A stretch of DNA of 32,000 nucleotides, taken from positions 450,001-482,000 of the forward strand of contig NC_017039.1 of the NCBI RefSeq assembly GCF_000284455.1, given 5' to 3'. The notes under the pieces are model-generated. The model ran no database searches. It was not told where the DNA came from and saw nothing but the letters and a program-made list of their open reading frames with translations. Of the stretch, positions 19,694 to 30,700 are shown one piece after another. The stretch is from Synechocystis sp. PCC 6803 substr. PCC-P (GTDB lineage Bacteria; Cyanobacteriota; Cyanobacteriia; Cyanobacteriales; Microcystaceae). The translations under genes were made by a program, and so were the position numbers. Positions within the stretch are counted from its first letter, which is position 1. Each line of letters starts with the position of its first letter.

Positions 19694-21016
19694 ATGATTG
19701 TCGCCTCCGAGGGCAGTGGAATGAGTGTCGCCTTTAATCCCCAAATTATGACCGCTGTGGAGCAGTTGGACTATGTAGTCACGGTGGGGGACGTGGCCAG
19801 CCAGGCTGGATTAGAAATTAACCAAACCCAACAGGGGTTGCTGACTTTGGCGTCGGAGGTGGAGGGCCATCTCCAGGTGGCGGAGTCGGGGGAAATTGTG
19901 TTTGCTTTTCCCAAGCAGTTCCGGACAATTCTCCGCAATAAGTATTGGCGTTTACGGTTCCAGAGTTGGCTCCAAAGCATTTGGCAGGTGTTGTTTTACC
20001 TGATCCGCATTTCCTTTGGCATTATCCTTATCCTTTCTATCCTGTTGATGTTAGTGGCCATCATTGCCATTATCATCGCGGTCAATTCCAAGTCCGATAA
20101 CGATAACGATGGGGGTTTTAAATTTTCCGGTGACGGTAACCGTGGTGGGGGTGGGGGAATATTTTTCTGGCCGGGGGACATTTTCTGGCTCCTTAGCCCC
20201 GATGGTGGCCGGCAAAAACGGGATAAGAAAAGGTCTGATAAAAATAAAAACGAGCTTAATTTCCTCGAAGCCATTTTCTCGTTTCTATTTGGAGACGGTA
20301 ACCCCAATGAGGATTTGGAAGAAAAACGCTGGCAAACCCTGGGTAGTTTAATTCGCCATAACGGTGGGGCGATCGCCGCTGAACAGGCGGCCCCCTATTT
20401 GGATAATGTGACCAAATTCAATCGGGACAATGAGGACTACATAATTCCTGTGCTAGCCCGCTTTAATGGTTATCCCCAAGTTTCCCCCAGCGGCGAATTA
20501 ATTTACACTTTCCCCAACCTACAAGTCAGTGCCCAGGAGCGCCAATCAACCACTTTGAGTGCTTACCTGCGGGAAAAACCCTGGAAATTTAGCCAAGCTT
20601 CCTCCGGCCAAAAAATAGCGGCGATCGCCTTGGGGGGAGTTAACCTAATTTTGGCCTTAAGTTTGGGGGTAATGCTGAAAACCTACGGCGCTGAGTTGGA
20701 TTTGGGGACACTGGTTTATTTCGTCCAGAGCATTTACGGCGTTCTGGTGACCTATGCAATCGGTTTCTTGGCTATTCCCCTAGTGAGATATTTCTGGCTG
20801 CAAGAACGCAATCAAAAACTAGAACAACGCAACGGCGATCGGCAACAGCGGGCCAAACTTCTGCAACCGCCCTCCCCTCCCCTCAAAGCTAAACTAGAAT
20901 TTGCCCAGGAGTGGGCCACTAGCACCGTCATTACTCCGGCGGACATCACCTACCGCACCGACCAAGACTCCCTGGAGCAGGAGTTTAAACGCTTTACCCC
21001 AACCCAGGGGGACTAA
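19694..21016 (+). CDS. Conserved hypothetical membrane protein with a Gly-rich / Lys-rich linker
   Basis: 440-aa ORF. A soluble N-terminal domain is followed by a transmembrane block, a low-complexity GGFKFSGDGNRGGGGG...RQKRDKKRSDKNKNE segment, a second soluble domain and two C-terminal transmembrane helices. The start may be the internal ATG at 19721. Confidence 0.6.
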   Translation: MIVASEGSGMSVAFNPQIMTAVEQLDYVVTVGDVASQAGLEINQTQQGLLTLASEVEGHLQVAESGEIVFAFPKQFRTILRNKYWRLRFQSWLQSIWQVLFYLIRISFGIILILSILLMLVAIIAIIIAVNSKSDNDNDGGFKFSGDGNRGGGGGIFFWPGDIFWLLSPDGGRQKRDKKRSDKNKNELNFLEAIFSFLFGDGNPNEDLEEKRWQTLGSLIRHNGGAIAAEQAAPYLDNVTKFNRDNEDYIIPVLARFNGYPQVSPSGELIYTFPNLQVSAQERQSTTLSAYLREKPWKFSQASSGQKIAAIALGGVNLILALSLGVMLKTYGAELDLGTLVYFVQSIYGVLVTYAIGFLAIPLVRYFWLQERNQKLEQRNGDRQQRAKLLQPPSPPLKAKLEFAQEWATSTVITPADITYRTDQDSLEQEFKRFTPTQGD

Positions 21017-21181
21017 CAGTTGACCAACAGTTACAAAGCCTCTATCCTTAGCATTTTTTCGCTACAGTGGCCAATTGTTTCTGAGAAGCGTTAACATAAG
21101 TTAACAACTGTTTATTATCCACTCCATCCATTGCTAACCGGTGGAATATGATAACTACACTCACTATTGGAGAGTTCTAGC

Positions 21182-23032
21182 GTGAGCAAAAATAATAAAA
21201 AATGGCGTAACGCGGGCCTATATGCCTTGTTGTTAATTGTCGTTTTAGCGTTGGCATCGGCCTTTTTCGACCGACCGACCCAAACTAGGGAAACCCTCAG
21301 CTACAGCGATTTTGTCAATCGGGTAGAAGCCAATCAGATCGAACGGGTCAACCTCAGTGCCGACCGCACCCAAGCCCAAGTACCCAATCCCAGCGGTGGT
21401 CCTCCCTACTTAGTCAATCTGCCCAACGACCCCGACTTGATCAATATTCTCACCCAACACAACGTGGATATTGCTGTCCAACCCCAGAGCGACGAAGGTT
21501 TCTGGTTCCGCATCGCCAGCACCCTATTTTTGCCCATCTTGCTCTTGGTGGGAATTTTTTTCCTCTTCCGTCGGGCCCAGAGTGGCCCTGGTTCCCAAGC
21601 CATGAACTTTGGTAAATCCAAAGCACGGGTGCAAATGGAACCCCAAACCCAAGTTACCTTCGGGGACGTGGCCGGTATTGAGCAAGCCAAACTAGAACTC
21701 ACCGAAGTGGTGGACTTCCTGAAAAATGCAGACCGCTTCACCGAATTGGGAGCCAAAATTCCCAAGGGTGTTTTGTTGGTAGGCCCCCCCGGAACCGGTA
21801 AAACCCTGTTGGCCAAAGCCGTGGCTGGGGAAGCGGGTGTACCGTTCTTTTCCATCTCCGGTTCGGAATTTGTGGAAATGTTTGTCGGTGTTGGTGCTTC
21901 TCGGGTACGGGATTTGTTTGAGCAGGCTAAAGCCAATGCTCCCTGTATCGTCTTCATCGATGAAATTGATGCCGTTGGTCGTCAACGGGGCGCTGGCCTT
22001 GGTGGTGGTAATGATGAGCGGGAACAGACCCTCAACCAGTTGCTAACGGAAATGGACGGTTTTGAAGGCAACACCGGCATTATTATCGTCGCCGCCACTA
22101 ACCGTCCCGATGTATTGGATTCTGCCTTGATGCGTCCCGGTCGTTTCGATCGCCAAGTGGTAGTAGACCGTCCTGATTATGCTGGCCGTCGAGAAATCCT
22201 CAATGTCCATGCCCGGGGTAAAACCCTTTCCCAGGATGTGGATTTGGATAAAATTGCCCGTCGTACCCCTGGATTTACCGGTGCTGACCTGTCCAACCTG
22301 TTGAACGAAGCCGCTATTTTGGCTGCCCGTCGCAACTTGACCGAAATTTCCATGGACGAAGTCAACGACGCCATTGACCGGGTGTTGGCTGGTCCTGAGA
22401 AGAAAAATCGGGTGATGAGCGAAAAACGCAAAACCCTAGTGGCTTACCATGAAGCTGGCCACGCCTTGGTGGGTGCTTTGATGCCTGATTATGATCCAGT
22501 ACAAAAAATTAGCATTATTCCCCGCGGCCGGGCCGGTGGTTTAACCTGGTTCACCCCCAGTGAAGACCGTATGGAATCCGGTTTATACTCCCGTTCCTAT
22601 CTGCAAAATCAGATGGCCGTTGCCCTGGGAGGCCGTATTGCTGAGGAAATTATTTTCGGCGAAGAGGAAGTCACCACCGGTGCTTCCAACGACCTCCAAC
22701 AGGTAGCCCGGGTCGCCCGCCAAATGGTAACCCGTTTCGGCATGAGCGATCGCCTGGGCCCGGTAGCTTTGGGTCGTCAGGGTGGTGGGGTATTCCTTGG
22801 TCGGGACATTGCCTCTGACCGGGACTTTTCCGATGAAACCGCTGCGGCGATCGATGAGGAAGTAAGTCAATTGGTAGACCAAGCCTATCAACGGGCCAAA
22901 CAGGTCTTGGTGGAAAACCGTGGCATTTTAGATCAACTGGCAGAAATCTTGGTAGAAAAGGAAACTGTTGATTCTGAAGAGCTGCAAACTCTCCTGGCTA
23001 ACAACAATGCCAAATTGGCACTTCTAGTTTAA
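21182..23032 (+). CDS. ftsH: ATP-dependent zinc metalloprotease FtsH
   Basis: Walker A GPPGTGKT, Walker B IVFIDEID, the SRH region, and the zinc motif HEAGHA are all present. A GTG at 21182 gives 616 aa, as I recall for slr1604 (FtsH3). The track ORF starts at a TTG at 21167. Confidence 0.95.
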
Positions 23033-23079
23033 GAATCCAAGCATTGGAATTCCTAGAGTTAAAACTCTGATCAAAACAT

Positions 23080-23114
23080 TATCCCCTTCCTGATTTACAG
23101 GGGGGGATTTTTTT
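23080..23114 (+). terminator. Intrinsic terminator after ftsH
   Basis: ATCCCC (23080-23085) pairs with GGGGAT (23103-23108), followed by a run of 7 T (23108-23114). Confidence 0.65.
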
Positions 23115-23126
23115 GTGGGCCATTAA

Positions 23127-23854
23127 GAGCGTGTTTGAAAAGTCGGCATAATTGGGAAAAATGGTGAAGAATACAGAATTTTCACCGTAATGATGCTGAG
23201 AGAATTTTACAGCAGCGACATCAGTGATAGCCAGTAGCAATTGGTAGAATCCAATCTCCCCCAAGCAAAAAGTGGGGGAAGAAAACGGAAAACTAATCTG
23301 AGGGAAGTGCTTAATGCCATTTTTTACATGCTCAGAGCGGGTTGTGCTTGACGACTTCTGCCCCATGATTTTCCCAAATGGCGAAGAATGGTTATTTCCG
23401 ACAGTGGTAGGAAGACGGTACCTGGAAAAAATTGAATCACATCCTCAGAAAGAAGATTCGACTTAAGGTCGGAAGAAATGCCAACCCTAGTGCTGGTTGT
23501 TTGGACTCACAGTCAGTGAAAAAGGCTGGCGCTGGACAAGAAAGTGGTTATGACGGTGGAAAAAAGGTCAATGGTCGTAAACGCACAATCCTCGTGGATA
23601 CCATGGGATTACTTCTCGATGTTGTGGTTCACAGCGCTCATCGCTCAGGCCACCAAGGTCTTACTCTACTCGGTACTTGGTTTGCTCCTCTATGGCAGTG
23701 CCTGCAATTGATATGGACTGACAGCACTTTTGGCAGTAAGAATTTTACTGCCTGGGTTAATTAATGAGACCTTTGGCTAGAATTTGGAAATCGTCAGCAA
23801 AAAGGATGGACAAAAGGGTTTTGAGGCTTTGCCTCGAACTTTTCAAACATATTC
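23127..23854 (+). mobile_element. Decayed IS5-family (IS427/IS1031-like) insertion sequence with an inactivated transposase
   Basis: Terminal inverted repeats are GAGCGTGTTTGAAAAGT (23127-23143) and ACTTTTCAAACATATTC (23838-23854), matching at 14 of 17 positions. The internal reading frames spell DDE_Tnp_1-type motifs ([73 protein letters not shown]). These are broken by TAG at 23235, TGA at 23349, a further TAG, at least one frameshift, and a C-terminal deletion. Confidence 0.8.
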
Positions 23855-23903
23855 TTAGTGCGCCAGTTAGTTGAAAGCAGCAAATCAAATTTTACCGAAT
23901 AGT

Positions 23904-24306
23904 TTATTCTGCCCAGTTTTCCAAGAATAAATTGTTAATGCGTGAAAATTCTCGAAGATTATTGGTGACAAGCGTTACTCCCAGACTTAACGCATGGGCT
24001 GCAATCAGCATATCCATAGCCCCAATGACAAGACCTCTACTTTCTAGATTACTTCTAATGTTGCCATAGGCGATCGCCGCTTCCTGAATTAAATTCCACG
24101 ATTTCTAGCGGCATCAAGAATTGCATTAAGGCATCACGATTTTTCGATTGTTGTTGACTTTTACTGACACCATATTCTAATTCCGCCACGGTAATGGATG
24201 AAATACCAATGTCTGATATCTCCAGGGTTTGAAATTTTGCCAAGACTTTAAACGGTTTCTTCTTAATGAGATAAATGCAAATATTCGTATCTAGTAAATA
24301 CTTCAT
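23904..24306 (-). pseudogene. vapC: PIN-domain toxin VapC, disrupted by a +1 frameshift
   Basis: The N-terminal frame reads MKYLLDTNICIYLIKKKP...LEIVEFNS and then stops at 24055. A shifted frame continues EAAIAYGNIRSNLESRGLVIGAMDMLIAAHALSLGVTLVTNNLREFSRINNLFLENWAE*. The total length is 403 nt (3n+1). The extra base lies in the CC run at 24073-24074. Confidence 0.8.
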
Positions 24307-24534
24307 TTAGAACTCTTCTCGTATATCTAAGGGAGGCTGTTCCCTAGTTTTCATAAAATCATCTGAAAATTGATCTAAGCTTTCAATTAAGGATTGCCAA
24401 GGGTTATTTTTAGCAATCAAAATAATTGTACTTCCAATTTTTTTAATGTAAACTTCGCTTCCGGCTATCGTAAAGTTTTCTGGTAAAATAACGATTTGAT
24501 GGGTGCCATCGGTGCTAATTTGAGCTGTGTTCAT
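24307..24534 (-). CDS. vapB: AbrB/SpoVT-type antitoxin VapB
   Basis: The 75-aa product from the ATG at 24534 (MNTAQISTDGTHQIVILPENF...) has a swapped-hairpin AbrB-like N-terminus. Its stop codon directly abuts the vapC ATG (TAAATG). Confidence 0.75.
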   Translation of the reverse strand: MNTAQISTDGTHQIVILPENFTIAGSEVYIKKIGSTIILIAKNNPWQSLIESLDQFSDDFMKTREQPPLDIREEF

Positions 24535-24612
24535 GACGTTGCCTCTAGGATAAGTAAGGGGGAAGAGTTGGCGATCGCCGAAAGATCGACTTTTCTTTTT
24601 TGACAAGTTAAA

Positions 24613-24894
24613 TTAATAGACTTCATCATGGGAACCTAAATTAAGTAATAAAATTGCCTCTTCCTTGTCTTCTGGGTTGTTTACAAATTCAAATAGCAGA
24701 CGATAATTATAGTCGATAGAGCATGACCAAACGTTAGCTAGTTCTCCTTTGAGTTTATGGGTGCGTAGGCTAGGGTGAAAAGGATCTGTTGCCAACTGAT
24801 GTAATATTTGTTCAATCATCGGTCTCAGATTAGGATTTTTGGGAATCAGGCGCTTGAATGAACGTAATGATTTTGGAGACCAGGCAATTTTCAT
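24613..24894 (-). CDS. RelE/YafQ-family mRNA-interferase toxin
   Basis: 93-aa ORF with the HKLKGELANVWSCSIDYNYRLLFEF...LLLNLGSHDEVY pattern typical of RelE/YafQ toxins. Its ATG overlaps the upstream antitoxin stop (ATGA). Confidence 0.75.
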   Translation of the reverse strand: MKIAWSPKSLRSFKRLIPKNPNLRPMIEQILHQLATDPFHPSLRTHKLKGELANVWSCSIDYNYRLLFEFVNNPEDKEEAILLLNLGSHDEVY

Positions 24895-25109
24895 TCTTGA
24901 TCGAGCGCTTCCAAAAATTGATTTACTGAACCAAACTGAACATCACCGTTAGCAAATTCTTGGCGAATTTCTTTGATTTCCTCGGCTAATTTTTTTCTTC
25001 TTTTTTCTTGCAATCGTTTTTGAATAATATCAAGTAAGATTTCTTGATCATCTAGGGGTAGATTTTCAACGGATTCAATGGCTTTTTGAAATTCTGATGT
25101 TTTTAGCAT
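24891..25109 (-). CDS. Cognate antitoxin of the RelE/YafQ-like toxin (small acidic/basic helical protein)
   Basis: 72-aa ORF with a 4-nt overlap onto the toxin gene. It has a charged helical sequence. The call is based on position and size. Confidence 0.6.
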   Translation of the reverse strand: MLKTSEFQKAIESVENLPLDDQEILLDIIQKRLQEKRRKKLAEEIKEIRQEFANGDVQFGSVNQFLEALDQE

Positions 25110-25211
25110 TGTAGTTTGACGGAATTTATTTAAGGTTTTAACTACGTGAAAGAGGATTGGCGATCGCCAAAAAATCAGCTATGGGGCACTCCGGTTAGTT
25201 GGAAAGAGTAT

Positions 25212-25547
25212 TTACATGTTTTCTAACAGAGAGTCGAATAGATAGGCTAATTCTGGTAGTTTGTTCTCAATTACATCCCAGATTATATCCAGATCAAGTT
25301 GATCATATTCGTGAACAATAACATCTCGCATTCCTGCCATTTCCCGCCAAGGTATTGCTGGATGTTGACTGCGGAAGTCTGGAGAAATTCGCTTTGTTGC
25401 TTCGCCAATAATCGTAATTTGATAGAGAATGGCTGATAATTTCTCATCGTTAATTTCTAGTTGTACTTTATCAATTTCATTCGTATAGCGCAAAATGCGT
25501 CTAATGGCATTGGCAATATCAATAAGGGATTCTTGATTACGTTGCAT
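25212..25547 (-). CDS. hepT: HepT (DUF86, HEPN-domain) RNase toxin
   Basis: 111-aa ORF with the HEPN R-x4-H motif in MRDVIVHEY. It overlaps the upstream mntA gene by 11 nt. Confidence 0.8.
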   Translation of the reverse strand: MQRNQESLIDIANAIRRILRYTNEIDKVQLEINDEKLSAILYQITIIGEATKRISPDFRSQHPAIPWREMAGMRDVIVHEYDQLDLDIIWDVIENKLPELAYLFDSLLENM

Positions 25548-25845
25548 AGATAATTTGGGCAGATTCTAAAATGTTTTTACGTCTGAGCCAGTTTTCACTC
25601 CGATTGATTGCACTTTTGACAATTAAATCGACAGGACGTTGAAATATTTCTTGCAGTTCATCTCGCATCTGTATGGTTTCTGTTAAACCACGTTTTGCAG
25701 TAGGCGCAAATTCAATGAGTATGTCAATGTCGCTGTCTGAATGAAAGTTTGGACGTAGGATGGAACCAAATAAAGCAAATTCTTTGACCTGCCATTTGTG
25801 ACAAAATTGACGAATTTGCTCCATCGGTAAATTTGTTGTTTCCAT
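25537..25845 (-). CDS. mntA: MntA minimal nucleotidyltransferase antitoxin
   Basis: 102-aa ORF with the GS...DxD nucleotidyltransferase signature (LFGSILRPNFHSDSDIDILIEF). Confidence 0.8.
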   Translation of the reverse strand: METTNLPMEQIRQFCHKWQVKEFALFGSILRPNFHSDSDIDILIEFAPTAKRGLTETIQMRDELQEIFQRPVDLIVKSAINRSENWLRRKNILESAQIIYAT

Positions 25846-25974
25846 AATCCTGACGATTTCTGTTTGAGCTATTTAAGTTTGTTTGTGTGTTTCAATGGAT
25901 CTCGAAGGAAAGGAAAATTGTATAAGCTTTTCCTATTTAGCTAGAGTGACAATCAAAGAGCATTTTTTAATTTT

Positions 25975-27501
25975 CTATCTTTTGAAAATGGCGAATCGCT
26001 CGGCTAGTGTTTTATCTCGGCAAGCTCTCGGTTTAGTAAATAGCTTAAAATCTGTATCTTTAAATAATTCCTGCTTACTTGTCACAATAGATTTGTAAAA
26101 TACATTTTCTTTGATTTTTTCGTTCTTAATAATACTGTCAAAATCTTCATTTTGAAAGCCAAGAGATATATAACGACAGAAAAATACCAACCAAACGATC
26201 TCAAAAACGGATGACATTTTCGATGCTCTGTCTAATTCATCCTTAATTGTTTCCCTAAGAAAATCCTTAAGTCCTTGATCATTTCTTTTATTTTCAATAT
26301 ATAAACGCTCAATAACTGATAAAACATGACATAGGATTTTTGTTGATTCTCGTTTTAGTAAAAACAAAAGAGAAATTGTCTTTCTGATTTCTTTTCCACG
26401 ATTTTGACTTGAATAACTAACCTTTAAATTATGTCTTTTGTCAAATAACTCTGCAATAAATTTTTCAATAATGCTAGTACCAGGGTGCTTTCGATGAATA
26501 TCTAATGCAATTAGCAAGGTATGTTCAAATTTTCTAAAAGAAATATATTTCTTTCTTCGCAATACATGAGGAAAATATGCTCGATTATGTTCTCGATAAA
26601 GCCCATCGGGAAGATTGAGAAACGATGTTTTACTTTCGTTCAATGAGAGATTATATTGAGAGAGTTGATGGGAAAGAATGTCAAGCAATTTTTTTGCATT
26701 TTCTTTCGAATTACATAATATTCTGTAATCATCTTTAAAGCGGACAGCTGCATATTCAATATGCTTGGATTCTTGGGAAAACTTACGATCAATATCTGCT
26801 AAGATAGTCTCAGCAATTAGATCAGAGAGTGCCGAACCGATGGGAATACCATTTGTTCGTCCATCATTTGAATATTGAAATAATCTATCAATTTTATTTC
26901 CAAAAAGTCTAAATTCTTTATCTTCAAGTGCTTCTTCTCTTCCATGAATGGCCCATCCAATACCATGAGTATAGATTGACGGATAGAAATTTGTAATATC
27001 GGTTTTGGCTAAAATATTAAATTTTTGACCATCTAGTATAAGGTCTTCCTCTGCCATTTCAAGCCATTCATAAATCATTCTACCTGCACGAAGAGGGCTT
27101 AAGTCTTCAAAATCTTTTTTTGAAACTGGAATAGGAAAACTGTAGGCGGCAACCTTATTTTCTGAGTGGAAAATATGGCTTAATATATTATCCCAGTTTT
27201 GATGTAAATAAAAAATAATGTCGTGATAATTCCAAGGATGCTGAACACTAAAATTTCTGTATGTTAAAGTACTTTTGGGAAATGAAACAAAAGCCACTTG
27301 ACGCTTTTTTAAATCATTAATGTTGATATTGTATGGAGTGTCTTGAAGTTTAATCTCTTTTGATACAGTAAAACTCGGTGGCAGGATATTTTCTTCGGGG
27401 AAATAACCAACATTCAGCAACCATTTTGCTATTTTATCCTTATTTACTTTCCGCACAAGAGATTCTGTTTCTCGGAAATGCTCATAGGTTGCAAACTTCA
27501 T
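25975..27501 (-). CDS. Stand-alone reverse transcriptase with a helical C-terminal extension (UG/Abi / DRT-like)
   Basis: The 508-aa ORF carries RT motifs in order: FPKSTLTYRNFSVQHP (1-2), AKTDITNFYPSI (A), NGIPIGSALSDLIAETIL (B), VRFKDDYRILC (C; the DD codons are at 26728-26733) and LSLNESKT (D). A roughly 200-aa Lys/Glu/Leu-rich tail follows. The gene is AT-rich and contains no HIP1 site. Confidence 0.85.
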   Translation of the reverse strand: MKFATYEHFRETESLVRKVNKDKIAKWLLNVGYFPEENILPPSFTVSKEIKLQDTPYNININDLKKRQVAFVSFPKSTLTYRNFSVQHPWNYHDIIFYLHQNWDNILSHIFHSENKVAAYSFPIPVSKKDFEDLSPLRAGRMIYEWLEMAEEDLILDGQKFNILAKTDITNFYPSIYTHGIGWAIHGREEALEDKEFRLFGNKIDRLFQYSNDGRTNGIPIGSALSDLIAETILADIDRKFSQESKHIEYAAVRFKDDYRILCNSKENAKKLLDILSHQLSQYNLSLNESKTSFLNLPDGLYREHNRAYFPHVLRRKKYISFRKFEHTLLIALDIHRKHPGTSIIEKFIAELFDKRHNLKVSYSSQNRGKEIRKTISLLFLLKRESTKILCHVLSVIERLYIENKRNDQGLKDFLRETIKDELDRASKMSSVFEIVWLVFFCRYISLGFQNEDFDSIIKNEKIKENVFYKSIVTSKQELFKDTDFKLFTKPRACRDKTLAERFAIFKR

Positions 27502-27769
27502 TAGCTATTATAAGTAATGACTTAAATATAGATTTTATCGCTGATTCGATTAGGGATGAGATACTCCTAAGTTCTGGAATCTTTATTTCTTAAGCTTCGT
27601 GTATCCTAAGAGTGTCCCATATCCATCCTAATTTGCTATAAACATATTTTCAACCCTTGTTCATTAAGTCGGCAAAAGATAATCTGTCCCCCTATTCTAC
27701 TGAAAAAGTGATTTTTTGACGTTGGGCTAGACTTCAGCCAGTTTAGCCCAGTTCCATCATAAATTTATC

Positions 27770-30700
27770 CTAACTCCCCCCAATGCGAGCCACATCCTTG
27801 GCATTCTCCTCAAACGCCGCATTCAAAGCATCATCGCCGCTCAAACCCGCTTCTAGCGCTTTTTTGATGGCTTGCAATACCCGTTTATAATCCCGAGGCA
27901 TTACCTTAACGAATTTGGGAATACTCGCTTCCCAATCTGCTAAAACAGCTTTACCTTTGGCGCTGTCGGTGTAGTTAACATGGTTCTGGATTAACTCTTT
28001 GAGATCCTTAATTTCTTCGGGATCTTCTAGTTTTTCTAAACCCACCATGGCGGAATTGCAACGGGTGGCAAAATCCCCAGTTTCATCGAAGATGTAGGCC
28101 ACACCACCACTCATGCCCGCCGCAAAGTTTCGTCCTGTTTGACCAAGAACCACGACTTTACCGCCGGTCATATATTCGCAACCATGATCGCCCACCGCTT
28201 CCACCACCGTATTGACGCCGGAATTGCGGACACAGAACCGTTCCCCCACCATGCCGGAAATATAAACTTCCCCAGCAGTGGCGCCATAGAGACAAACATT
28301 ACCGGCAATGATGTTTTCCGAAGCGATAAAACTAGAGCCTTTGGGGGGATAGACAATAATTTTGCCGCCGCTCAATCCTTTACCCAGGTAATCGTTGGCA
28401 TCCCCTTCCAGTTCCAGGGTCATGCCCTTGGGAATAAAGGCCCCAAAACTTTGCCCCGCACTGCCTTGGAAATGGAGATGGACAGTATCTTCCGGTAAAC
28501 CTTCCCAATGGCGTTTGGTGATTTCGTTGCCGACAATGGTGCCCACCACCCGGTTGATATTGGTAATGGGTAAAGTGGCGGTGACTTTTTCCCCTTTGGC
28601 GATCGCCGGTTGGCAGAGATCCAATAACTGGGTGATGTCGAGGGAATGCTGAAGACCATGATCCTGGGGAATTTGGCAATAACGACCCACATCGTCCCCT
28701 ACTTCCGGCTGATGGAGAATAGTGGAAAGATCAATGCCTTTTGCTTTCCAGTGAGCTACGGCCTTTTTCGGTTCCAGAATATCGGTGCGACCAACCATTT
28801 CGTTAATGGTGCGGAAACCCAGTTGGGCCATCACTTCCCGCAGTTCCGTGGCAATAAAGGTCATAAAGTTGACCGCATGGGCCGGATCGCCGGTGAATTT
28901 GGCCCGCAGTTCCGGATTTTGGGTGGCAATGCCCACGGGACAGGTATTTAAATGACAGGCCCGCATCATAATGCACCCCAGGGATACCAGCGGCGCAGTC
29001 GAAAACCCAAACTCTTCCGCCCCCAGTAAAGCGGCGATAGCCACGTCCCGGCCAGTTTTCATTTGCCCATCGGTTTCCACCACAATACGGGAACGGAGAT
29101 TGTTCAACACCAAGGTTTGATGGGTTTCCGCTAGGCCCAATTCCCAGGGCAACCCAGCATGTTTAATGGAAGTTTGGGGTGATGCTCCGGTTCCTCCGTC
29201 ATAGCCAGACACTAGCACCACATCGGCATGGGCCTTAGCCACCCCAGCGGCGATCGTGCCCACCCCGACTTCCGACACCAGTTTGACGTTAATGCGGGCT
29301 TCCCGGTTAGCATTTTTCAGGTCGTGGATTAATTCCGCCAAATCTTCAATGGAATAAATGTCATGGTGGGGCGGGGGAGAAATTAAACCTACGCCGGGAG
29401 TGGAATGACGCACTTTGGCGATCCAGGGATAAACTTTTTTGCCGGGTAGCTGACCCCCTTCCCCAGGTTTTGCACCCTGGGCCATTTTGATTTGAATTTC
29501 CTTTGCTTGGGAGAGGTACAAACTGGTCACTCCAAAGCGCCCGGAAGCCACCTGTTTAATGGCACTGTTTTTGGAATCTCCCTGATCGTTAGTCCAGGTA
29601 AACCGTTCCGGATCTTCCCCCCCTTCCCCAGTGTTGGACTTACCACCAATGCGATTCATGGCGATCGCCAGGGATTCATGGGCTTCTTTGGAGATGGAGC
29701 CGTAGCTCATGGCCCCGGTTTTAAAGCGTTTCATGATCGCTTCAATGGGTTCCACTTCTTCGAGGGGAATAGATTCTCGGTCTTGGAAATCCAGTAAGCC
29801 CCGCAGGGTAAAGAACTTTTGGTTTTGTTCATTAACCAGGGCGGCGTACTGTTTATAAAGCTCGTAATTACCTTCCCGCACCGCCCGTTGTAATAAATGA
29901 ATGGTTTGGGGACTAAATAAATGCTCTTCCCCATCCTTCCGCCATTGGTACTCACCCCCTACATCAAGGGTATGCAAATCACCAGGGCGAGGAGCAAAGG
30001 CATGTTGATGGCGCAAAATAGCTTCCTGGGCAATTACACCTAAATCAGAACCTTGGATGCGGGAAGAAGTGCGGCAGAAATATTCATCAATCACACTCTG
30101 ATTTAAGCCCACCGCTTCAAAAATTTGGGCACCTCGGTAACTTTGGATGGTGGAAATGCCGATTTTAGAAGCAACTTTAATTACCCCTTTGGTGGCGGCT
30201 TTGATATAGTTTTTGCAAGCGGTTTTGTGATCCACATTAACCAGTAAACCTTCGGCGATCATACCGTCCAAAGTTTCAAAAGCTAAGTAAGGATTAATGG
30301 CTCCACAACCGTAACCGAGTAGGACAGCAAAATGATGCACTTCCCTCGGTTCCCCAGATTCCAATACTAGACCCACCTTGGTACGGGAACCGTTGCGAAT
30401 CAAATGGTGATGTAACCCCGACACCGCCAGCAGAGCAGGGATAGCCGCTTTTTCCGCACTAACTTGGCGATCGCTGAGAATGATTAGGTTAGCTCCTTGG
30501 GAAATGGCCTGGTCAGCTTCCGTAAACAAATTATCTAACGCAGTTTTAAGGCCCGCTTCCCCTTGGTTCGGATCAAACAAAATGTCTAGGGTGACGGATT
30601 TAAATTCATCGTCGTCTAACGCTTTGAGCTTAGCTAGATCTTCGTTGGTTAAAATGGGAGTTTTCAACTCAATTAAGCGGCAACTTTCTGGCCGAGGATC

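Follow-up and report, generated by a model that had tools for sequence, protein, structure and literature searches.

The gene sll1503 of Synechocystis sp. PCC 6803 codes for a stand-alone reverse transcriptase (RT) that is an intact, ordinary member of group UG14, which belongs to Class 1 of the UG/Abi RTs. The gene is located on the minus strand at positions 25975–27501 of a 32,000 nt stretch of the chromosome (NC_017039.1, positions 450,001 to 482,000; this whole stretch is called the window, and positions refer to it unless stated otherwise). Considering what is known for its relatives, we favor the view that sll1503 is a horizontally acquired single-gene system, which probably acts in abortive infection through protein-primed, untemplated synthesis of single-stranded DNA (ssDNA) by an oligomer.

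The open reading frame (ORF) starts with ATG and codes for 508 amino acids. The predicted protein exactly matches the entry sll1503/BAA17017.1 of Synechocystis PCC 6803, and exact matches to PCC 6803 entries were also obtained for slr1603, PxcA, a regulator of the PatA subfamily and sll1504. A first-pass annotation, made from the sequence of the window alone, had described an orphan RT with a complete motif series and an intact catalytic triad, and the motifs that it quoted could be read at the residues it named. Motif A contains Asp168 (codon 26998–27000, within AKTDITNFYPSI) and motif C contains Asp257-Asp258 (codons 26728–26733, within RFKDDY). In an alignment of 120 homologues these aspartates are invariant or nearly so, and Asp168 and Asp257 are retained in all 108 of 108 family representatives. 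The significant match to the Pfam profile RVT_1 (E 3.7e-12), for which the annotation had proposed a search, covers residues 130–295, the RT fingers/palm core that includes all three aspartates (26617–27114, minus strand). RVT_1 is the only Pfam domain in the protein; no maturase, endonuclease or any further domain was detected by Pfam, as the annotation had stated for maturase-X and endonuclease domains. The core is followed by a C-terminal domain predicted to be helical and of the alpha-repeat type (residues 304–508; 25978–26592, minus strand). The annotation had called this tail of about 200 amino acids helical and rich in Lys and Glu. The helical character is borne out by the structural model described below and Lys is indeed abundant (12%), but Glu is hardly more frequent in the tail (7.8%) than in the whole protein (7.3%).

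The subgroup, which the first-pass annotation could not name, was provided by the PADLOC profile set that it had suggested for this purpose. The model for UG14 (PDLC03751 RT_UG14) matched with 665.3 bits (E 1.4e-200), aligning residues 5–508 to profile positions 4–492 of 493. The scores of sister profiles were far lower (Drt6/UG12 234.6 bits, AbiP2 202.7, Drt4/UG15 192.9, AbiK 117). None of the NCBIfam equivalog cutoffs was reached by sll1503, and the score for the Drt4 equivalog was 165.6 bits versus a cutoff of 450. UG14 belongs to the Class 1 groups, in which the RT is fused to an alpha-helical repeat (alphaRep) domain (Mestre et al. 2022, NAR 50:6084). In that study UG14 was among seven groups that are strongly enriched in defence islands and "predicted as novel defense genes", with a defence association frequency of at least 0.15; the groups assayed there were UG12, UG10, UG7 and UG28, and UG14 was not among them. 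Among the candidates scored we found 1121 homologues of sll1503 at E ≤ 1e-10, with lengths of about 500–540 amino acids among the matches listed, and 117 clusters at E ≤ 1e-30 in a library of 1.8 billion proteins clustered at 50%. UG14 membership was recognizable down to about 32% identity. The hosts belong to Cyanobacteria, Bacteroidota, Proteobacteria, Planctomycetota, Acidobacteriota, Patescibacteria and further phyla. In phage and plasmid collections no UG14 member was found; these contained only relatives with less than 36% identity, including the Abi-P2 prototype of P2-EC58.

To get an idea of the fold, a model of sll1503 was calculated by AlphaFold2 from the alignment of 120 homologues. 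The model has a mean predicted local distance difference test (pLDDT) value of 92.8 and a predicted template modelling score of 0.91. Residues 304–502 are all-helical, with pLDDT values mostly above 90. The sole internal stretch of low confidence comprises residues 131–150, with values below 50 at residues 139–141. Comparison of the model to the PDB by Foldseek revealed whole-chain matches to DRT4 (9vdo, template modelling (TM) scores 0.69/0.71), to DRT6 (9wy8, 0.63/0.65) and to Abi-P2 (7r08, 0.65/0.67), and the UG15 structure 9l9s also matched over its full length. The alignments to DRT4, DRT6 and Abi-P2 comprise 458–489 columns and consequently include the helical domain. AbiK reached TM scores of 0.54–0.59 and AbiA 0.44. 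For DRT2, DRT9, retron RTs, RTs of diversity-generating retroelements (DGR) and group II intron RTs, only the RT core was matched (TM 0.29–0.36, with 0.32–0.36 for DRT2 and DRT9). The first-pass annotation had grouped the protein by exclusion with the single-gene RTs carrying a helical tail, such as AbiA, AbiK, Abi-P2 and the UG/DRT proteins, and had suggested that structure prediction be used to look for an alpha-repeat fold in the tail. Profiles, predicted structure and fold comparison all lead to the same placement, and the full-length matches to DRT4, DRT6, Abi-P2 and AbiK extend over the helical tail. The predicted structure confirms the Class 1 architecture by positive evidence and not just by exclusion.

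Several Class 1 proteins have been studied biochemically. AbiK and Abi-P2 occur as hexamers or trimers, prime from a tyrosine of their own and synthesize untemplated DNA, and their helical domain holds the nascent strand at the place of a template. Protein-primed untemplated synthesis was also demonstrated for DRT4 and DRT6. Random ssDNA is made constitutively by DRT4 and removed by the host ExoI; ORF55, an ssDNA-binding protein of phage T5, shields the 3′ end, which leads to accumulation of the ssDNA and to cell death. Family membership, intact catalytic residues, the fold and the lack of a partner gene or partner RNA follow from our own comparisons, whereas these relatives are the source of what we infer for sll1503: that it forms oligomers, is primed by protein, needs no template, responds to such a trigger and serves in defence at all. 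The helical repeat domain, fused to the fingers/palm core, would replace the thumb. By homology to DRT4 (UG15), DRT6 (UG12), Abi-P2 and AbiK, the protein is expected to assemble as trimers or hexamers, and a tyrosine of the protein itself would serve as primer for the polymerization of ssDNA in a reaction that needs no nucleic-acid template. In the relatives, host 3′-5′ exonucleases keep such ssDNA harmless; upon infection a phage ssDNA-binding protein shields it and renders it toxic, and infected cells are killed or arrested before phage is released. The scheme proposed for sll1503 is modelled on the same course of events.

The priming tyrosines are located at different sites in the individual families: Tyr44 in AbiK, Tyr61 in Abi-P2, Tyr298/303 in AbiA and Tyr125 in DRT4. 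In sll1503, Tyr144 (codon 27070–27072) is predicted to be the best candidate. It is invariant in 120 UG14 sequences and lies within the invariant stretch LRxGRMIYEW, which in sll1503 is the loop L137–W146 (LRAGRMIYEW; 27064–27093, minus strand). This loop is part of the segment of low confidence in the model, which is presumably mobile. The distance of 24 residues between Tyr144 and Asp168 equals that between Tyr125 and the motif A Asp of DRT4, and a gapless phmmer alignment pairs the two tyrosines. A second family-specific tyrosine, Tyr120, has exceptions of its own and is the predicted alternative. We also considered a priming site as in Abi-P2. Tyr60 of the P2-EC58 homologue ORF544 (within LPSYVDF) was taken as the equivalent of the Abi-P2 priming Tyr61 (motif LPxY), and Abi-P2-like sequences retain this tyrosine. 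In UG14 the corresponding position is S43/F44 (LPPSF), and this site is therefore unavailable to sll1503.

Some observations speak against the proposed mechanism or against Tyr144 as primer. Function and chemistry are deduced from relatives with 20–36% identity, and in the literature searched we found no experimental characterization of any UG14 protein. The priming site of Abi-P2, the protein in the PDB that is most similar to sll1503 in sequence, differs from Tyr144. In a profile alignment Tyr125 of DRT4 is offset from Tyr144 by three residues, and a few divergent UG14 members lack a tyrosine at this position (Phe in P0210). Furthermore, Class 1 is not uniform, as Drt3b and DRT7 produce defined repeats templated by protein and not random DNA. 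This variation in product chemistry leads to a first alternative: sll1503 may be a Class 1 UG/Abi enzyme with a product or role unlike that of DRT4, namely a defined protein-templated repeat, another trigger or a function that is not antiviral. UG14 proteins share only about 20% identity with DRT4 and DRT6, and they have invariant motifs of their own (LRxGRMIYEW and SYSFPIP) that are missing from Abi-P2-like and Drt6-like relatives. However, the nearest folds, those of DRT4, DRT6 and Abi-P2, all belong to single-gene systems that make untemplated DNA of undefined sequence, and Drt3b and DRT7 act together with a second polymerase or domain, neither of which is present in UG14. We therefore regard this alternative as rather unlikely and prefer protein-primed, untemplated synthesis for sll1503.

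The base composition of the gene fits a horizontal origin. The GC content of sll1503 is 32.2%, whereas the window has 45.6% and gltB 50.6%. The foreign composition noted in the first-pass annotation was in this respect correct, but the value of about 60% that it gave for a sampled line in gltB does not apply to the gene overall, and the contrast is smaller. UG14 genes have a mean GC content of 32% whatever the host, and the value was below that of the flanks in 54 of 56 loci. This indicates that low GC is a trait of UG14 as a whole, typical of a mobile cassette of the defence type, and nothing special at this locus. The annotation had further pointed to the position of the RT gene in the longest gap of the window that is free of HIP1 (GCGATCGC). 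This gap (25160–28599, 3439 nt) is indeed the longest, but when 32 sites are randomly placed in 32 kb, a longest gap of at least 3439 nt occurs in 66% of placements. Because of this probability (P = 0.66) we dropped the HIP1 gap as an argument for foreign origin. The closest relative, present on cyanobacterial metagenome contigs, has 81% identity to sll1503 at the protein level and 81.7% at the DNA level, and its neighbouring genes are different. DNA similarity extends from 22 nt before the ATG to the stop codon. Since similarity is confined to the ORF and these 22 nt, the transferred unit is essentially the ORF.

The RT gene is flanked by gltB on one side and by three toxin-antitoxin (TA) pairs, the remnant of an insertion sequence (IS) and ftsH on the other. 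Together, the IS remnant, the TA pairs and the RT gene form an islet of low GC between ftsH (slr1604) and gltB (sll1502) at 23033–27769, which we consider as context and not as the RT system. It was described earlier as a possible "mobilome island", in which the RT was labelled "retron-type" (Kopfmann et al. 2016, PMC4963859). The IS remnant (23116–23865) consists of imperfect 28-nt inverted repeats (79%) flanking a transposase fragment. This DDE_Tnp_1 fragment of 110 amino acids (23432–23764) is known from the literature as ssr2699, a partial transposase. The TA pairs (24055–25845) are encoded on the strand of the RT and comprise PIN with its antitoxin, a RelE/ParE-like toxin with its antitoxin, and MNT with HepT. 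The PIN ORF has only 83 amino acids and covers profile positions 1–81 of 120; toxicity and RNase activity were reported for this protein, Ssl2923. Unlike the RT gene, the TA genes contain HIP1 sites (24070, 24571 and 25160).

When the region 19694–27769 of the window was compared to the genome of the sister strain Synechocystis PCC 6714 (CP007542.1), synteny extended through slr1603 and ftsH and then broke off. In PCC 6714, ftsH is followed by an ORF of 339 amino acids, a Mur ligase and pyruvate kinase, and neither the IS remnant, the TA cluster and the RT nor gltB is present there. At another site, the UG14 gene is located directly downstream of acnB (aconitase B) in three loci of pleurocapsalean-type cyanobacteria (L001, L030 and L056), which suggests a second, independent insertion site inherited within this lineage.

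The absence of the RT from the corresponding site of PCC 6714, together with its setting in a "mobilome island" beside three TA pairs and the remnant of an IS, would also fit a hitch-hiking or decaying cassette that has no current function and is kept by TA genes stabilizing the islet. The gene itself argues against this, as the ORF is full-length and every invariant residue of the family is intact. Moreover, the exact protein sequence of sll1503 is on record on 222 contigs, and a near-identical copy exists in the environment. On the environmental contig (JGI metagenome 3300048597) the junctions between gltB, RT and MNT are the same as in the window, and comparison to positions 25600–27900 revealed 3 differences in 2.3 kb: one in the spacer and two that lead to the exchanges A224T and V361I in the RT. 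A cassette that has lost its function is thus unlikely.

We surveyed the neighbourhood of 80 UG14-related loci from representative genomes, to which the PCC 6803 locus itself did not belong; 699 neighbouring ORFs were clustered, and the 128 immediate neighbours were scanned by PADLOC and Pfam. No conserved partner gene emerged: the largest cluster, a subunit of type I restriction-modification systems, was present at 7 of the 80 loci, and among the 128 immediate neighbours no Pfam family occurred more than 8 times and no PADLOC family more than 5 times. In a minority of the loci, components of type I and type IV restriction systems and candidate defence genes are found next to the RT. The designation of the RT as an orphan in the first-pass annotation agrees with this result. 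ORFs of about 195 amino acids downstream of the RT were considered as a common partner, but turned out to be mutually unrelated except for an enterobacterial trio. In these three loci, from Franconibacter (L032:8510-9097), Pseudescherichia (L036:8507-9100) and Enterobacter (L037:8507-9100), an ORF of 195–197 amino acids begins 1–4 nt after the RT stop codon. It contains an R-x4-H motif (RNKLSHEM/RNKIAHEM), and its matches are below threshold and all to HEPN domains. By its sequence, the ORF may represent a lineage-specific HEPN accessory of UG14.

In PCC 6803 the RT could likewise belong to a multi-gene system whose effector is the MNT-HepT pair (HepT being a HEPN RNase) or the entire TA operon. 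The MNT gene sll1504 (25537–25845) and the HepT gene sll1505 (25212–25547) are encoded on the strand of sll1503 at a spacing of 130 nt, and the TA pairs belong to one larger transcription unit. HEPN partners are also known from other Class 1 groups, AbiA-large and UG22 (Mestre et al. 2022), and the HEPN-like ORF of the enterobacterial trio points in the same direction. Genome position 477658 (reverse strand) was reported as "TSS of TU", the transcriptional start site of the transcription unit, for sll1504/05 (Kopfmann et al. 2016, PMC4963859). If this start site is upstream of sll1503 (27502–27769) rather than in the 130-nt spacer (25846–25974), the RT would head a unit of seven genes. We looked for expression and start site data in the supplements of Kopf 2015 and Kopfmann 2016, in which sll1503 is not mentioned. 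Nevertheless, a phmmer search for homologues of the MNT, HepT, RelE-like and PIN proteins of the window near other UG14 loci gave a single MNT-like match, which is encoded on the opposite strand (L009). The closest relative of sll1503 has other neighbours, and homology of the cassette stops at the RT stop codon. Finally, the MNT-HepT module is sufficient by itself as a TA system, and PCC 6714 encodes a homologous pair while lacking an RT at the corresponding site. A multi-gene system of this kind is therefore highly improbable, and a single-gene UG14 system is the preferred reading.

No indication of an RNA partner was obtained either. In the region 23000–28200 there was no Rfam match at E ≤ 1 and no repeat pair resembling retron a1/a2 or the template and variable repeats (TR/VR) of DGR, only short chance matches. 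The statements of the first-pass annotation that the region lacks group II intron RNA, retron repeats and a TR/VR pair thus hold. Among 59 upstream and 59 downstream regions of UG14 genes, flanking DNA was not conserved beyond close relatives. The upstream intergenic region of 268 nt, which separates the stop codon of gltB from the start codon of sll1503 (27502–27769, minus strand), has a fold z-score of −1.8. It contains a promoter-like site (27625–27653); promoter-like sites occur in this region at chance frequency. Just past the gltB stop codon, a GC-rich hairpin, GGGCTAAACTGGCTGAAGTCTAGCCC, is followed by A/T runs (27724–27749, minus strand). The hairpin is probably the terminator of gltB, leaving the RT to its own promoter. 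Assignment to the Class 2 DRTs (DRT2, DRT3a, DRT9 and DRT10, the latter corresponding to UG17) was rejected in view of the missing conservation of flanking DNA at 59 loci, the confinement of similarity with the closest relative to the ORF and 22 nt before the ATG, and the low fold similarity to DRT2 and DRT9 (TM 0.32–0.36). From the sequences compared, a non-coding RNA of the Class 2 type appears very unlikely for sll1503.

The label "retron-type reverse transcriptase", used in the source annotations (JGI; Kopfmann 2016), and an origin from a mobile group II intron or a DGR have generic RVT_1 similarity in their favor and can practically be dismissed: sll1503 scored far below the NCBIfam cutoffs for retron St85 (43 versus 235 bits) and for the group II RT/maturase TIGR04416 (46.8 versus 300 bits), no msr/msd, intron or other Rfam match, no suitable inverted repeats and no long direct repeat pair were found in 23000–28200, the neighbours are TA genes, Pfam detects RVT_1 and no maturase or endonuclease domain, and the likeness to retron, intron and DGR folds is restricted to the core (TM about 0.3). 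Placement in any of these three clades with a cognate RNA or partner nearby, which the first-pass annotation had named as a result that would overturn its view, is contradicted by profiles, Rfam, repeats and fold alike.

No new kind of system emerges from our data, and the result will not surprise a specialist. UG14 had been predicted as a defence group in 2022, and the gene had been published before as belonging to a "mobilome island", wrongly as "retron-type". It is of interest that the cyanobacterium most widely used as a model carries an intact, full-length UG14 copy on its chromosome. Current labels are "reverse transcriptase domain-containing" or, wrongly, "retron-type", and a correction is useful for annotation. 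The gene also lends itself well to addressing three questions: whether UG14 makes protein-primed untemplated DNA, whether Tyr144 is the primer, and whether systems of the DRT type are active against cyanophages. It would be a long shot to expect that sll1503 becomes the first UG14 protein and the first cyanobacterial RT of the DRT type shown to be active, with a chemistry or trigger that possibly departs from the DRT4 paradigm, such as a protein-templated product or cooperation with a HEPN RNase. Hints of a cooperation with a HEPN RNase come from the MNT-HepT pair, located 130 nt downstream of the RT, and from the HEPN-like ORF at the RT stop codon in the three enterobacterial loci.

Among the named systems, DRT4 (UG15), a single-gene antiphage RT with the structures 9vdo and 9l9s (Wang et al. 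2025, PMC12783706), is the closest structural match over the full chain, with 479–489 aligned columns. Like sll1503 it is a single protein with no non-coding RNA, N-terminal YFP..PP(S/C)F motifs are common to both, and in both a conserved tyrosine, the priming Tyr125 in DRT4, precedes the motif A Asp by 24 residues. The two proteins differ in that their identity is only about 21%, the helical domains diverge in sequence and sll1503 does not reach the Drt4 equivalog cutoff. DRT6 (UG12), which makes protein-linked untemplated DNA, has the second-best PADLOC profile, matches in fold over the full length and is also a single-gene Class 1 system; it is, however, a separate group, and the Drt6 representative P0329 has no tyrosine at the position of Tyr144. 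Among the solved structures, Abi-P2 of P2-like prophages (structure 7r08; Figiel et al. 2022, PMC9508834) matches best in sequence (E 2.5e-29 with the single sequence, 2.3e-34 with the profile) and has the same bilobal architecture of RT and helical domain, but Abi-P2 is borne by prophages, whereas UG14 was not found in the phage and plasmid collections. AbiK and AbiA belong to Class 1 as well and have the overall architecture in common with sll1503; their sequences are much more distant, AbiA has an extra HEPN domain and the priming tyrosines are at other sites. With the UG14 group itself, sll1503 shares the length of about 500 amino acids, the RT core with helical C-terminal domain, the occurrence as a lone gene and the scattered distribution over phyla. 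There is no difference of substance: sll1503 is a cyanobacterial member of this group, located beside TA genes rather than restriction-modification genes.

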